Source: an uncultured Gammaproteobacteria bacterium (GTDB lineage: Bacteria; Patescibacteriota; Patescibacteriia; UBA9934). From it: a stretch of 64,000 bases of DNA. The notes beneath the pieces were generated by a model, which searched no databases, was not told the DNA's origin, and saw nothing but the letters and a program-made list of their open reading frames with translations. The stretch lies in assembly GCA_964401485.1 (NCBI GenBank), contig CAYNYL010000003.1, positions 18,365-82,364 on the forward strand, written 5' to 3'. A program made the translations under genes and the position numbers. This document shows positions 9,301-12,224 of the stretch, one piece after another (the stretch's first letter is position 1; each line of letters opens with the position of its first letter).

Positions 9301-9543
9301 GAAGCAATTTCTACGGCAATCGCTCTTCGATTCCGACCGATCGTGCTTACACAGATGACGGCGTTTGGAAGTCTAATCCCGCTCGTGTTCCTTTCGCCGT
9401 TCTGGCAAGGGCTCGCCGCGTCGATTATCTTCGGTATCATTTTCTCCGGACTTCTCTCGCTTATCTCGACGCCGATCCTATACCTCTGGGCCTACTCGGT
9501 GCCGGAGATGGCAAGAAACCTTATTCGAAGATTCCGATCCTAA
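6388..9543 (+). CDS. RND superfamily efflux transporter permease (AcrB-like, 12 TM)
   Basis: 1051 aa with two large periplasmic loops and two TM bundles. The second bundle has an RND-like pattern (FAIPLGLVGVFLAIGATTGQLGF...VVNVTILIIDYANQ). Confidence 0.8.
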   Translation: MLKNGLTMPIYEQLARFLFRNGKLIFFAFALLVGLGSFALTQIERQGFPAILVNVASVQVVYPNADAETVEREILIPLEAEIEAIDTVLEYQGSAGDNFGLLIVTFDQNADIDEAVAELRNSVSSVTLPSGAKEAEVELFSVNGVGEFIVALTGDGDPMRLYEKGLEFETSLQGVDGVKKVTAMNPLTPEIRITFDGKALAEAGLTRSAVEAQLQGANFVAPAGSIIEDETQVNIAVASRLTTLGELKAYTLAPGVTLDDVAKIEEVVNNNDYYNRVGIESKKGDVAVSRALLYGIAIDADADILTVDESLKTALETVRDNEPKNSKYGYEIVYSQADSTRQQISEISQSMFGAPIDAFGPLAFLGYIFGGLLLVVIMLFVLMNLRVAILAALAIPLSLFATLGYLYFVGIDLNTLVLFSMVLVIGLVIDPTIVFMESMQRYIDEGMSPEDAGIKTLKTVGLGVFLAVATNAIVFIPFGVVSGFFGEIIKYIPATVIPSMIASIVIPVLFFIPIGAKILRPRKGVVDVDGSLSTTWAVSRGLKRLLDGLLKKGKLAGAIRVVVFVGLMALPLVVGGVMIQTKTVEVVQFAATDDSDFMTISGDLPDEWLFDKSVYEVVVPVQDIVAEYEEVQSFFYYEQRGNDFTLFVTLDPIKERQDAELMTATELAEALNKDFASQKFDAEIKAVVSSDGPPQEQFPVKLRVYLDDEATLADTVEAMRSYLSDVEGVDVVNDTLSKKTTGGTVVYEVDSAKGVPAGLVYGALAERIADRELGELTLGSTKYEIHSQYTGEKVNDFLELEVLPGLPLGAVATETTLESKTIARSNGKRYAEISASVLKDADSALIQAEFKEFAEQYAKENDLPLNALDFKGEADSIAESFNDLFVALAIAIFIMYALLVIFFRSFFEPFIILFAIPLGLVGVFLAIGATTGQLGFLELLGVVTMTGIVVNVTILIIDYANQLKREGKSVEEAISTAIALRFRPIVLTQMTAFGSLIPLVFLSPFWQGLAASIIFGIIFSGLLSLISTPILYLWAYSVPEMARNLIRRFRS

Positions 9544-9611
9544 ATCAAGAGCGCTCCTTCCGGGGCGCTTTTGACTTTGGCTAAAATGAGCTTATTTTAT
9601 ATCATTTTACC

Positions 9612-9640
9612 TTGACTTTTTGGCCACAATATGCTATATT
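9612..9640 (+). promoter_or_regulatory. Sigma70-like promoter for the DGR target gene (TTGACT-17-TATATT, with extended -10 TGC)
   Basis: cTTGACTttttggccacaatatgcTATATT. Perfect 17-nt spacer. Confidence 0.55.
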
Positions 9641-9775
9641 AACTCCTGTACTTTTCATCTGCGCTAAGATTGGTTATAGCAAAAAGTGGCTTGATAATAG
9701 GCTATTTCTCGCTATGACCAATTCGGTCTACAGCTCCACCTCGGATAGAGGGATGCTAGAAAAAAGGATGACGCC

Positions 9776-10399
9776 ATGACCCAGATCATGACCCCATCGA
9801 AGACCACGACCGACGGCCAGATCATCAAGGCCACCGCGAACTTCCGAGCCATGCTCGAGAAGCATGCGGGGGAGTTCTCCGCCGATGCCGTGCAAACGGT
9901 GCTCGGCGATCCGGGACTTGCTGGCGAGATGCTCGCGGTGCTTCGTAGACGTGTCGAGGCCATCTCGAACATCATCGTTCGCAAGGTCACGGTGAATCGC
10001 ACCCGCTCCGCGCAGGATGCCCTCAAGGCCACGGGTCGTGTCATGTACACAGACTCCGCAGTCGTGGAAGCGGTGCCGAGCGGCGAGGGCGAGGAGGCGG
10101 AGATCTGCCTCTTCAAGCTCGACCTGTCGAAGCGCGGCGGATGGATCTCGGATGACGATCTCGAGAAAGAGTTCGATCTCCGAGGCCTGAAGCCCGTCGA
10201 CCCGTTCGCGCTCGCTGCGCTGAACGAGGCCGATCCGGCCTTCGCTGACGAGAAGCCGAACGCGACCCACTGGAAGGATGTGCAGGGCGACTGGTGCTAT
10301 GCGGTCTTCTACGGGTGGTTCGGCGAGCGCCGGGTTTCTGTCAACCGTCACGACTACGATTGGTACGGCAGCTGCTGGTTCGCCGGCGTCCGCAAGTAG
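9776..10399 (+). CDS. DGR variable (target) protein with C-terminal VR, likely CLec-type fold
   Basis: 207-aa ORF, markedly GC-rich and GC3-biased. Its last ~35 codons (DWCYAVFYGWFGERRVSVNRHDYDWYGSCWFAGVRK) form the VR that pairs with the downstream AAC-rich TR. Confidence 0.8.
   Translation: MTQIMTPSKTTTDGQIIKATANFRAMLEKHAGEFSADAVQTVLGDPGLAGEMLAVLRRRVEAISNIIVRKVTVNRTRSAQDALKATGRVMYTDSAVVEAVPSGEGEEAEICLFKLDLSKRGGWISDDDLEKEFDLRGLKPVDPFALAALNEADPAFADEKPNATHWKDVQGDWCYAVFYGWFGERRVSVNRHDYDWYGSCWFAGVRK
10290..10395 (+). repeat. DGR variable repeat (VR) at the 3' end of the target gene, ending in a GC-rich IMH-like segment
   Basis: About 105 bp aligned to TR at 10724..10828. 18 mismatches, 17 of them where TR has A. 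The last ~20 bp (ggttcgccggcgtccgcaa) are identical. Confidence 0.85.
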
Positions 10400-10449
10400 C
10401 CCTTCGCTCTCGAGTTCTAGGGGCTTTTGTCCCTTTGGACTTAGCTCTT

Positions 10450-10489
10450 GGCCCCGTTCCGATTCCTCGGGACGGGGCCTGTGTTTTTC
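10450..10489 (+). terminator. Hairpin downstream of VR (GGCCCCGT...ACGGGGCC plus T-run): target-gene terminator and/or DGR homing-associated stem-loop
   Basis: 8-bp perfect GC-rich stem followed by tgtgtttttc, about 50 nt after the stop. Confidence 0.55.
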
Positions 10490-10723
10490 AAATTAAGTTA
10501 TAATAACTTTGGTAGTAGGTGAGTAGGCGAACGGTCAAGGCTTTTCGCTACCGAATCCAGTATCCATGCGTTTCGAGTATTCGCGGCTATGGTTTCGAAT
10601 AGAGTGTCGCATGCAGACTCTTCAAAAATGAAGCTACTTGGTACGGGATTTTATGGTATTGTGATGCCGAATGCGATTCAGCTTCGAGAAATTCTAGGGG
10701 CGGTGGCACAGAAGGAATCCTGT

Positions 10724-10828
10724 ACAAATGCTATGCGATCTTCAACAGGTGGAACGGCGAGCGCCAGGTCAATGTCAACCGTAACGACAACGATTGGAAC
10801 GACAACTACTGGTTCGCCGGCGTCCGCA
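10724..10828 (+). repeat. DGR template repeat (TR)
   Basis: Invariant copy of VR. In the VR frame it encodes KCYAIFNRWNGERQVNVNRNDNDWNDNYWFAGVR. It is very rich in AAC (Asn) codons, the DGR hallmark. Confidence 0.85.
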
Positions 10829-10835
10829 ACTCGCT

Positions 10836-11237
10836 TCATTTCTCTCCGGCGTTTGTCGGAGAGTTTTGTTTGGTGAGTTGGCCGTTCCAACCGCCCAGCA
10901 TTTTGCCGACCTCATCTAGTTTGATCGAAAGAGCGATATATTTCTTATTGTCGAGCGACTTTGTCTCCCAGAGAATTAAAATCAGGACGCGTAGAGTGTC
11001 CATCTTTTTAATAGCGAGGCGCACATAAGGGTGCTTTTCGATAGGTGAGAGAAAACTGGCGGCAGATAGCGCTTCTATCGTCTCAATGAATAAAATGTCG
11101 ACCCGCTGACCGAGCGAGTGTCGGTGAGTCTTTGGGAGTTCGCGGTGATAGTTGTGCCAAATGATGTAGGACTCCTTGGTTTTACTTAGGACTGGCAAAA
11201 TTTTGTAAGGGGGGGGTACTATAGGGGTACGATTCAT
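10836..11237 (-). CDS. avd: Accessory variability determinant (Avd)-like four-helix-bundle protein
   Basis: 133 aa. YHRELPKTHRHSLGQRVDILFIETIEALSAASF matches the 4HB/Avd pattern. C-terminal LDEVGKMLGGW resembles the Bordetella phage Avd EVGRILGSW. Lies between TR and RT but on the opposite strand. Confidence 0.7.
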   Translation of the reverse strand: MNRTPIVPPPYKILPVLSKTKESYIIWHNYHRELPKTHRHSLGQRVDILFIETIEALSAASFLSPIEKHPYVRLAIKKMDTLRVLILILWETKSLDNKKYIALSIKLDEVGKMLGGWNGQLTKQNSPTNAGEK

Positions 11238-12224
11238 ATGCGTTTTGATTGTCCTTATGATGATATCATTTTAGTCGAAAATCTTCTTGAGGCATGGAAA
11301 GAATTTGTTCGGGGAAAGCGGTCGCGAGAGGATATCTTGCGGTTCGAGCGGGACCTCATGGGAAATATTCTTTTGCTTCACGATGAACTTAAAGCGAAGA
11401 CTTACACCCACTCCCCGTATCACCACTTTAAAATCACGGATCCAAAATTAAGGGATATTCACAAGGCTTCTGTTCGGGATCGGCTTTTACATCACGCGAT
11501 TCACCGTAAGTTGTCTCCCTTTTTTGAGAAACGATTTATTTCGGATTCGTATTCTTGCCAGAATGACAAAGGAACGCATCGTGCTTTACGGCGATTTAGA
11601 AAATTTGTAAACAAATGCTCTAAAAACTCAACGAAGACGGTTTGGGTTTTAAAATGCGATATTCGGAAGTTTTTTGCGAGCATCGATCAAAGGAGACTGC
11701 TGACGATCTTGGAAAGGACGATTGAAGATAAGGAATTACTTTGGCTGATTGCTCGGGTTGTTCGAAGTTTTTATGTTACGACCCCGGGTATCGGACTACC
11801 GCTCGGCAACCTCACCTCGCAACTATTTGTGAATGTGTATATGAACGAATTTGACCGGTTTGTAAAACATCATCTAAAGGCTCGCTACTATATTCGCTAT
11901 GCGGATGATTTCGTTGTGCTTGATACCGATCGTTTTAAATTGATCGAGACGCTGTTGAAAATGAACACATTTCTTAATGAAGAGTTGGAACTGTCACTTC
12001 ATCCGAATAAGACGTTTATCCAAACCGTCGCGTCAGGTGTGGATTTTCTTGGGTGGGTACATTTTTCTGATCATCGCGTCGTTCGTGGCACAACAAAACG
12101 GAGAATGCTTTCTAAGCTTCGGGATGGTGTGAAAAATGAAACACTACAGTCGTATCTTGGACATTTACGGCATGGAAATAGTCGGAAATTACTCGCGATA
12201 CTTCAAGATCGATTTATTTCTTGA
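11238..12224 (+). CDS. DGR reverse transcriptase
   Basis: YADDFVV catalytic motif. GLPLGNLTSQLFVNVYM is the DGR-specific IGxxxSQ-type motif. FKITDPKLRDIHKASVRDRLLHHAIHRKL, SYSCQNDKGTHRA and CDIRKFFASI align with bRT-like RT motifs 1 to 3. Confidence 0.9.
   Translation: MRFDCPYDDIILVENLLEAWKEFVRGKRSREDILRFERDLMGNILLLHDELKAKTYTHSPYHHFKITDPKLRDIHKASVRDRLLHHAIHRKLSPFFEKRFISDSYSCQNDKGTHRALRRFRKFVNKCSKNSTKTVWVLKCDIRKFFASIDQRRLLTILERTIEDKELLWLIARVVRSFYVTTPGIGLPLGNLTSQLFVNVYMNEFDRFVKHHLKARYYIRYADDFVVLDTDRFKLIETLLKMNTFLNEELELSLHPNKTFIQTVASGVDFLGWVHFSDHRVVRGTTKRRMLSKLRDGVKNETLQSYLGHLRHGNSRKLLAILQDRFIS

Follow-up and report, generated by a model that had tools for sequence, protein, structure and literature searches.

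Diversity-generating retroelements (DGRs) are abundant in bacteria of the candidate phyla radiation (CPR), and to our knowledge no mechanistic work has been carried out on DGRs of the B3 type. This architecture, defined in the legend of Figure 5 of PMC5758913 as ‘TR-(avd)-RT’ (template repeat, accessory variability determinant, reverse transcriptase), accounts for 90% of the set from CPR and occurs almost nowhere else (Wu et al., 2018, NAR, PMC5758913). For the DGR of Bordetella, a ribonucleoprotein (RNP) has been described in which the spacer 3′ of the template repeat (TR) supplies two adjacent strands, whereby strand one, which bears the priming adenosine, is paired to the 3′ end of the TR, and strand two pairs just upstream of the TR and stops complementary DNA (cDNA) synthesis; Avd is bound by a stem-loop that follows the TR (bioRxiv 10.1101/2023.10.23.563531). 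The same work states that CPR DGRs have similar elements, its analysis being restricted to the 40 nt before and the 100 nt after the TR (bioRxiv 10.1101/2023.10.23.563531). Here, we report on a DGR locus from a stretch of 64,000 nt of an uncultured bacterium (contig CAYNYL010000003.1 of assembly GCA_964401485.1), which is called the window in the following and to which all coordinates refer. We are highly confident that the region 9612–12224 of the window is a chromosomal DGR of the CPR/Patescibacteria type with the architecture B3, consisting of a target gene with its variable repeat (VR), the TR, an inverted avd, and the reverse transcriptase (RT) gene. A sequence-only reading of the window had proposed a complete DGR with promoter, target gene with VR, TR, inverted avd, and RT, i.e., the full kit for targeted protein hypervariation; each of the named components was examined and each of them holds. 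All parts of the element are intact, and it is an ordinary member of an already known, very large DGR clade.

The central evidence is the pair of repeats. The best ungapped offset between them is 434, whereby position 10290 pairs with 10724 and position 10395 with 10829 (plus strand). The VR (10290..10395) takes up the last 36 codons of the target gene, and the TR (10724..10829) lies downstream of it. The location of the repeat had been predicted correctly, but the length of 105 nt (10724..10828) had to be revised since the TR comprises 106 nt. Over these 106 nt, VR and TR differ at 18 positions, 17 of which are TR adenines (A to G in eight, A to T in seven, and A to C in two cases), so that 17 of the 31 adenines of the TR are substituted. 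The hypergeometric probability that at least 17 of 18 mismatches fall on adenines is 2e-10, which bears out the suggestion that the two copies differ almost only where the TR has adenine. When the TR is read in the frame of the target open reading frame (ORF; 9776–10399) it translates to KCYAIFNRWNGERQVNVNRNDNDWNDNYWFAGVRN, with six AAC codons and one AAT codon, and 29 of 30 TR adenines are found at codon position 1 or 2. Because of the adenine-specific mismatches and this AAY phasing in the target frame, the downstream copy was assigned as TR and the gene end as VR. A scan of both strands of the 64-kb window with the non-adenine TR positions yielded no second VR (73 of 74 positions match in the VR described here, 37 in the next best site). 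The 3′ end of the VR (10375..10395, plus strand) is identical to the TR over 21 nt and G+C-rich (CTGGTTCGCCGGCGTCCGCAA); its only adenines are the final AA, and VR and TR diverge directly after it. By likeness to Bordetella, as in PMC5758913, this segment is a putative initiation of mutagenic homing (IMH) sequence. About 25 nt past the VR there is a small hairpin, AGGGGC-TTTT-GTCCCT (10419..10434, plus strand). A hairpin of 5–7 bp with another stem sequence, followed by TTTG, occurs at the same offset in most of the DGR-bearing relatives, with some loci being unclear, and we regard it as a candidate for an inverted repeat or cruciform that aids homing.

The RT gene (11238..12224, plus strand) encodes a protein of 328 aa that carries the DGR hallmark LGNLTSQ in motif 4 and the catalytic YADD; the motifs LPLGNLTSQ and YADDFVV, which had been pointed out in this ORF beforehand, are both present. 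The RT matches Pfam RVT_1 at 79.6 bits and PHROG 1423 at 364 bits. Its closest solved relative is 8ub7_A (E 8.5e-47, 163 bits, residues 8–319), whereby 8ub7 is the DGR ribonucleoprotein of a Bordetella phage. In this alignment LGNLTSQLFVNVY stands opposite IGSLTSQLFANVY, and YADD stands opposite YMDD. More than 8000 homologs of the RT were found, with E-values down to ~1e-137, and the window RT is 60–66% identical to thousands of relatives; the named homologs belong to Patescibacteria (CPR) genomes. Thus, the assignment as a DGR-type enzyme stands: profile hidden Markov model (HMM) and PDB searches place the protein with DGR RTs, not with the RTs of group II introns or retrons.

The 133-aa ORF on the minus strand between TR and RT gene (10836..11237) was identified as avd by HMM searches and by its predicted fold, a four-helix bundle. 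It matches NCBIfam DivGenRetAVD (E 3.4e-15), PHROG 3206 ‘Avd protein of DGR’ (2e-13), and Pfam bAvd (3.4e-9), and it has 1910 homologs, with PF22296 present in all 120 that were listed. The AlphaFold model, for which database homologs were used, has four long helices and a mean predicted local distance difference test (pLDDT) value of 80.9. The best 23 Foldseek matches of this model are all Avd or Avd-like chains (2gsc, 8ub7 B–E, 4dwl, and 2rld), and template modeling (TM) scores of 0.62–0.84 were obtained against the Bordetella Avd structures 4dwl and 8ub7 B–E. Sequence searches of the PDB, either with the single sequence or with a 16-sequence profile, found no Avd, and the fold comparison was needed for this match. 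Overall, the small Avd-like gene that had been suspected at this place is supported by three HMMs and by the similarity of its predicted fold to Bordetella Avd.

In order to see how the cassette is organized in relatives, the target family was searched in one genome per species, which resulted in 26 Patescibacteria loci. A TR was found in 19 loci (the window, the independent contig L004, and 17 Patescibacteria loci from GTDB), and in 19 of 19 it forms an adenine-specific pair with a VR on the same strand, the TR being located 420–555 nt downstream of the VR. The order target (+), TR (+), avd (−), RT (+) was found in every locus that has both RT and Avd (17 loci, window counted), and the cassette recurs in relatives with different TR/VR sequences. 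By their coordinates, the genes of the window follow the B3 core, TR-(avd)-RT, in which avd is encoded on the reverse strand. Since the same order is found in the related loci and in the B3 definition (PMC5758913), an inverted avd is the norm for this clade; its orientation, which had been highlighted before, is real but no oddity. Eight loci (L007, L010, L011, L016, L020, L022, L023, and L025) carry a target homolog, and RT, Avd, and TR were not found in the available sequence; up to 6 kb per side were examined, some of the contigs are much shorter, and these targets are either orphan or remote from a cassette. Furthermore, two tandem target homologs are present on L015 and two complete DGR copies on L119.

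The target gene (9776..10399, plus strand) encodes the variable protein of 207 aa and carries the VR at its 3′ end. Upstream of it, a consensus scan found a sigma-70-like site, TTGACT-17-TATATT, with a TG before the −10 box (9612..9640, plus strand), which matches the consensus at 10 of 12 positions and agrees with the promoter that had been proposed here. Boxes similar to TTGACA and TATAAT are aligned at the matching place upstream of the target in related loci, and we take 9612–9640 to be the presumable target promoter. The 5′ untranslated region (UTR) contains a hairpin, GGTTATAGC ... GCTATGACC (9672..9719, plus strand), for which RNAalifold on 13 loci predicted 17 pairs, eight of them with compensatory changes, and the alignment of relatives revealed a conserved GGATGACGCC directly before the target ATG (9766..9775, plus strand). 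Hairpin and GGATGACGCC together may constitute a regulatory leader; no Rfam family was matched by the target 5′ UTR, either at the gathering score or with E-values of up to 10. The target protein has 519 homologs of ~207 aa and matched nothing in Pfam, NCBIfam, PHROGs, or PADLOC, nor in the PDB by sequence. In its structural model (pLDDT 90.7), a helical segment at the N-terminus precedes a compact C-type-lectin-like domain that carries the VR, and the fold matches of the model include the DGR variable proteins TvpA and Mtd. In the predicted structure, the variable residues are located on the C-type-lectin-like fold. The gene ends in an intrinsic terminator with a 13-bp GC stem and a T run (10450..10489, plus strand; terminator scan), and an equivalent hairpin with T run precedes the start of the RNA described below in most of the relatives. 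An antisense ORF, likewise of 207 aa, overlaps the target (9728–10351, minus strand). The public gene call on identical contigs took the antisense ORF, with the result that the protein collection lacks the real target protein.

The region around the TR gave the most detailed picture. Downstream of the target gene there is a −10 box, TATAAT (10499..10504, plus strand), a hexamer that is conserved in front of the 5′ end of a conserved RNA: a TAnnnT hexamer is located 10–15 nt (mostly 12–13 nt) before this end in 40 of 41 RNA copies, usually just after the target-gene terminator. The conserved RNA starts at GGTAGTAGG (window position 10511), and conservation in nhmmer searches together with covariation delimits a structured 5′ leader (10511..10723, plus strand), followed by the TR and a 3′ tail (10830..10873, plus strand). 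All helices of the leader are on the plus strand. P1 (10511–10558) and P2 (10568–10610) are followed by an A-rich single strand, AAATGAAGC (10626–10634), and by the invariant TACTTGGT (10635–10642), which links the two leader strands. The second of these strands belongs to P3, a helix of 12 bp (10641–10652 with 10714–10725) that encloses P3a (10655–10668) and P3b (10681–10701). P3 ends at 10726, the first TR base to vary, and thus reaches into the beginning of the TR/VR homology by its last two bases. The tail consists of GCTTCATTT (10833–10841), which pairs with the A-rich leader strand 10626–10634 to form helix 8, a hairpin (10842–10863) whose stem covaries among relatives, and TTTTGTTT; a terminator scan recognized the hairpin and the following run as terminator-like up to 10871. 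An identical insertion of ~25 nt, CCCAGTAGGTCATTCTGCTGAATGA, is present in the P3a loop of the unrelated loci L008 and L033, and a similar insert occurs in P1 of L008.

The nhmmer profile detects the RNA in ~40 loci, some of which have unrelated TRs. As it is present in metagenome loci with unrelated TRs, the scaffold is generic for this type of DGR. A motif scan of metagenomes was unspecific, whereby 23 loci of 120 stretches showed a complete or partial match to the RNA profile, and a motif scan of IMG/VR gave eight matches, one of which (L158) is a real DGR RNA. With 37 sequences, RNAalifold predicted 59 pairs, 51 of them with compensatory changes. When this structure plus one added long-range helix was evaluated across the alignment, 93.8% of the cells were paired compared to 39–50% in slid controls, and 447 double-change cells were counted compared to 69–90, values that were reached by none of 500 shuffles. 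For helix 8 alone, 91% of the cells were paired and 13 double-change cells were found compared to 0–3 in the slid controls, again reached by 0 of 500 shuffles. Every helix of the RNA is intact in the window copy. A local hairpin (CTTC...GAAG) was tried as a rival of helix 8 and showed no covariation beyond that of the shuffles; a possible GTATC/GATAC tertiary contact was dropped, being mismatched by eye in the window copy; and when every pair of alignment columns was scanned by brute force for additional covarying helices or pseudoknots, nothing but scattered single pairs emerged, and no extra helix was added to the model. The leader, too, has no Rfam family, either at the gathering score or with E-values of up to 10.

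Taken together, the conserved ends and the flanking signals suggest that the TR sits in a discrete non-coding RNA of ~360 nt (10511 to ~10873) with its own −10 box and its own terminator. The pairing that frames the TR in Bordetella is present here as P3, helix 8, and the stem-loop after the TR, all of them with covariation, in an arrangement that is permuted with respect to Bordetella. Because the topology is the same while both clamp strands are located in the 5′ leader, the CPR RNA looks like a circularly permuted version. By analogy, P3 would be the reverse-transcription stop, priming would take place at or next to the junction of helix 8 and TACTTGGT, and the 3′ hairpin might serve as terminator and at the same time correspond to the stem-loop that binds Avd. 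At its 3′ end, the RNA also overlaps avd: the last avd codons (KQNSP...GEK) and the TGA stop codon are antisense to the 3′ hairpin and the helix-8 strand (10836–10875). This Avd tail is conserved among relatives yet disordered in the Avd model, so that the constraint behind its conservation probably comes from the RNA and not from the protein. No description of the RNA leader was found in the DGR literature, whereby Paul et al. (2017) may already contain one.

A second conserved feature is located at the divergent junction of avd and the RT gene, where the ATG of avd abuts the ATG of the RT gene back to back (CAT|ATG). Here, a homopolymer of eight G residues (11209..11216, plus strand) lies 22–29 nt upstream of the RT ATG and is directly followed by a −10-like TACTAT (11217..11222, plus strand). 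It is the sole G/C run of at least 7 nt in the 64-kb window. The observation covers the window and the junctions of L006–L030, L033, L075, L086, L094, L106, L109, L115, L119, L139, L142, L151, and L158. A junction poly-G of 7–12 nt was found in 27 of 32 related loci; the others have (TTGG)n in L009, (CT)n in L158, masked bases in L019, or no repeat (L058 and L147). Related loci with a total of 226 kb contain 15 G/C runs of at least 8 nt, and 14 of them are located at the avd|RT junction. The two DGR copies of L119 differ in tract length (G10 and G8), with the sequence directly flanking the tract being identical. Usually, the tract is preceded by a conserved CTGGCAAAA and directly followed by a TAnnnT hexamer. 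It is thus placed between a −35-like and a −10-like element, the spacing of which would therefore change with tract length. On the other strand, the tract falls into the 5′ end of avd, where gene callers place the start variously upstream or downstream of it; start-codon statistics did not settle which, and the conserved TTG at 11196–11198 may be the start rather than the ATG at 11237. Since the position is conserved, the length is variable, and other repeat units can substitute for the G tract, the junction repeat suggests, as far as can be read from the sequences, a hypermutable and thus phase-variable switch for the expression of RT and/or Avd. No link between simple-sequence repeats (SSRs) and DGRs was found in the literature; Paul et al. 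(2017) may describe the junction repeat.

Evidence for the transfer of sequence from TR to VR came from the comparison of the window with other contigs. The window is identical to three Logan contigs, independently assembled from one and the same population (SRR13355620, SRR13355621, and SRR13355622), over the parts they cover. One contig of the same origin, L003 (SRR13355621_575), starts at window position 10800 inside the TR, a break of the kind typically seen where an assembler struggles with the TR/VR repeat. No further VR variants came from the protein clusters of target and antisense ORF, both of which are singletons. L004, in turn, is an independent contig from another study (SRR16481187). 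The end of its transporter gene, the spacer, the RNA leader, the TR, and avd are 82–90% identical to the window, whereas within 9544–10289 the promoter and 5′ UTR are 98.3% and the non-VR part of the target gene is 99.6% identical. The two TRs show 12 differences, all of them at non-adenines of the window TR. At 10 of these 12 positions the VR of L004 shares the base change; the other two became adenines in the L004 TR. L004's own TR and VR differ at adenines only (18 of 18). Thus, the VR of each lineage follows the local TR and not the history of the gene body, and therefore TR-to-VR transfer postdates the divergence. As judged from these alignments, transfer is more recent than the last ancestor shared by the lineages, or by the gene body, which shows past function and not present activity.

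The 5′ part of the target gene appears to have a history of its own. Compared to the window, the locus L005 has two differences in 420 nt (up to 10014) and is then abruptly ~25% diverged. The target gene has a G+C content of 63%, compared to 51% in its surroundings in the window and ~42% in the RT gene, and the G+C content of the target is 5–26 percentage points above that of the surroundings in 16 of 16 loci examined. The breakpoint in L005 together with the identity pattern of L004 indicates, on the basis of these sequences, that the 5′ module of the target is mosaic and has been exchanged between lineages. The comparison gives evidence for a target gene that is moved and recombined independently of the cassette, with the local TR rewriting its VR.

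Several points weigh against the reading of the locus as a complete and functional B3 DGR. The Avd scores are below the curated cut-offs (NCBIfam 56 vs. 80, Pfam 37.6 vs. 40), and the similarity of the target to lectin domains is modest at the level of the fold (Z of at most 6.9). Neither a signal peptide nor a hydrophobic or membrane segment is visible in the target sequence, and therefore a surface role is not evident. The RNA ends and the priming nucleotide are placed by analogy and motif conservation alone. With regard to current activity, the consensus VR is identical to that of the window in the two same-population assemblies that reach the VR, and one VR/TR mismatch, VR T10336 vs. TR C10770, is not at an adenine. 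These last two observations would fit an inactive relic, whose VR was diversified earlier and which is now silent or decaying, with the VR effectively being a fixed allele. It would also fit that several relatives have no in-frame start codon upstream of the poly-C tract (the junction tract as read along avd), so that avd could be off there, and that orphan targets exist, with 8 of 27 target-homolog loci being without RT, Avd, and TR in the sequence examined. We nevertheless consider a relic unlikely, since all ORFs are intact, the catalytic motifs of the RT are present, all RNA helices are preserved in the window, the VR contains neither a stop codon nor a frameshift, and TR-to-VR transfer took place after the split from L004 despite a 99.6% identical target gene body.

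The host context bears on a further possibility, namely that the DGR resides in a prophage and varies a receptor-binding protein of the phage, in the manner of the Bordetella phage BPP-1. RT and Avd do match PHROG phage families, and a related RNA with cassette is present on the IMG/VR contig L158. However, the neighbours of the cassette are housekeeping genes and not phage genes (an RND-type transporter, a pseudouridine synthase, methyltransferases, a DEAD-box helicase, and an ABC transporter), the 207-aa target has neither a PHROG match nor tail-fibre features, and a blastn search with the leader against 50,697 phage records gave no match, which makes a prophage origin very improbable. Still less credible, to the point of being negligible, is that the RT belongs to another retroelement (a group II intron, a retron, or a defence RT) and that the 106-bp repeat is a plain partial gene duplication: the top NCBIfam model is indeed the group II intron RT/maturase TIGR04416, PADLOC lists many defence RT (DRT) models at lower scores, and public annotations of relatives read ‘retron-type’ or ‘group II intron’ RT, but the NCBIfam scores are far under the curated cut-offs (145.6 bits vs. 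300 for TIGR04416, 58 vs. 235 for the retron model, 70 vs. 200 for Drt3a), as are the DRT scores, group II intron RTs reach 82 bits in the PDB comparison, half of what the Bordetella DGR RT 8ub7_A scores, retron and defence RTs score lower still, Rfam found neither a group II intron RNA nor a retron RNA at gathering score in the 64-kb window or at E up to 10 over 9540–11300, and the adjacent RNA carries a TR that matches the VR with adenine-specific mismatches (P 2e-10), next to an Avd, in a cassette that recurs with different TR/VR sequences.

Under the reading of the locus as a chromosomal B3 DGR, the following mechanism can be proposed. A short promoter (−10 box at 10499) would drive the transcription of the ~360-nt RNA, which comprises the folded 5′ leader, the 106-nt TR, and the 3′ tail with hairpin and U run. 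In this RNA, the TR would be clamped by two helices, P3, which ends at 10726, and helix 8, which joins the tail 3′ of the TR to the A-rich leader strand, whereby the invariant TACTTGGT would link both leader strands. RT and Avd would bind the RNA, reverse-transcribe the TR from its 3′ side, and misincorporate opposite adenines. The resulting cDNA would then replace the VR (10290–10395), guided by the G+C-rich 3′ homology and perhaps by the downstream hairpin. As an outcome, up to ~15 codons of a small protein with C-type-lectin fold would be recoded, presumably in its ligand-binding surface. The data themselves show the parts with their families, the VR/TR pattern at adenines, the folding of the RNA, and transfer from TR to VR after the split from a sister lineage. 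Within this scheme, we infer the boundaries of transcription, the priming site, the stop at P3, current activity, and the ligand. The combination of a permuted, self-contained RNA of ~360 nt, with TACTTGGT as the expected place of priming, and a hypermutation system that is stochastically switched on and off by a repeat, both of them perhaps undescribed, is put forward tentatively, and we would rather expect that at least some part of it will not hold. In the CPR DGR literature, Paul et al. (2017) excepted, no mention was found of the covariation-supported RNA leader, the junction repeat, or the mosaic, GC-rich target.

As a DGR alone, the locus adds little since it has thousands of close relatives. 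It does represent a clean and complete reference copy of the B3 type, and its RNA scaffold and junction repeat are the parts of most further interest. A secondary-structure model of a CPR DGR RNA would be useful for reconstituting or re-engineering compact systems, whereby the parts are small (RT of 328 aa, Avd of ~120 aa, RNA of ~360 nt). If it is true that a contingency repeat controls the diversity generator, this would provide an explanation of how very small genomes keep the cost of hypermutation within bounds.

Poly-G or poly-C tracts that cause phase variation, be it from within a promoter or from the 5′ part of a coding region, are known from Neisseria, Campylobacter, and the fim promoters of Bordetella. 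The junction repeat resembles these systems in that the RT gene has a variable G tract of 7–12 nt between its −35-like and −10-like elements, a tract that also falls into the 5′ end of avd. It would differ from them in that the controlled genes are those of a mutagenesis machine and not of a surface antigen, and in that the repeats are here read from sequence alone. Among the chromosomal DGRs, the targets TvpA of Treponema denticola and LdtA of Legionella are larger lipoproteins or surface proteins with export signals, whereas the target of the window has 207 aa and no visible signal; the accessory genes and the gene order of the TvpA and LdtA DGRs are also different from those of the window. 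The DGR of Bordetella phage BPP-1 (mtd-avd-TR-brt; RNP structures 8ub7–8ube, Avd structure 4dwl) shares with the window an RT that is homologous over its whole length, the same Avd fold, adenine-specific differences between VR and TR, a G+C-rich 3′ homology, and a target with C-type-lectin fold. Both RNAs flank the TR with duplexes, one adjoining its 3′ end and one directly 5′ of it. In contrast to BPP-1, the avd gene of the window is on the opposite strand and downstream of the TR, and the element is chromosomal and not phage-borne. Furthermore, the clamp strands of BPP-1 are located in the spacer 3′ of the TR, whereas those of the window are together in the ~210-nt leader 5′ of the TR, and, unlike in BPP-1, the window RNA continues for only ~45 nt after the TR, up to a terminator-like hairpin which shares its sequence with the stop codon of avd. 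Compared to the B3 DGRs of CPR and DPANN, finally, the cassette of the window itself shows no difference: it is found in the same host group (Patescibacteria), has the same gene order and orientation, and carries a small target of an unannotated family.

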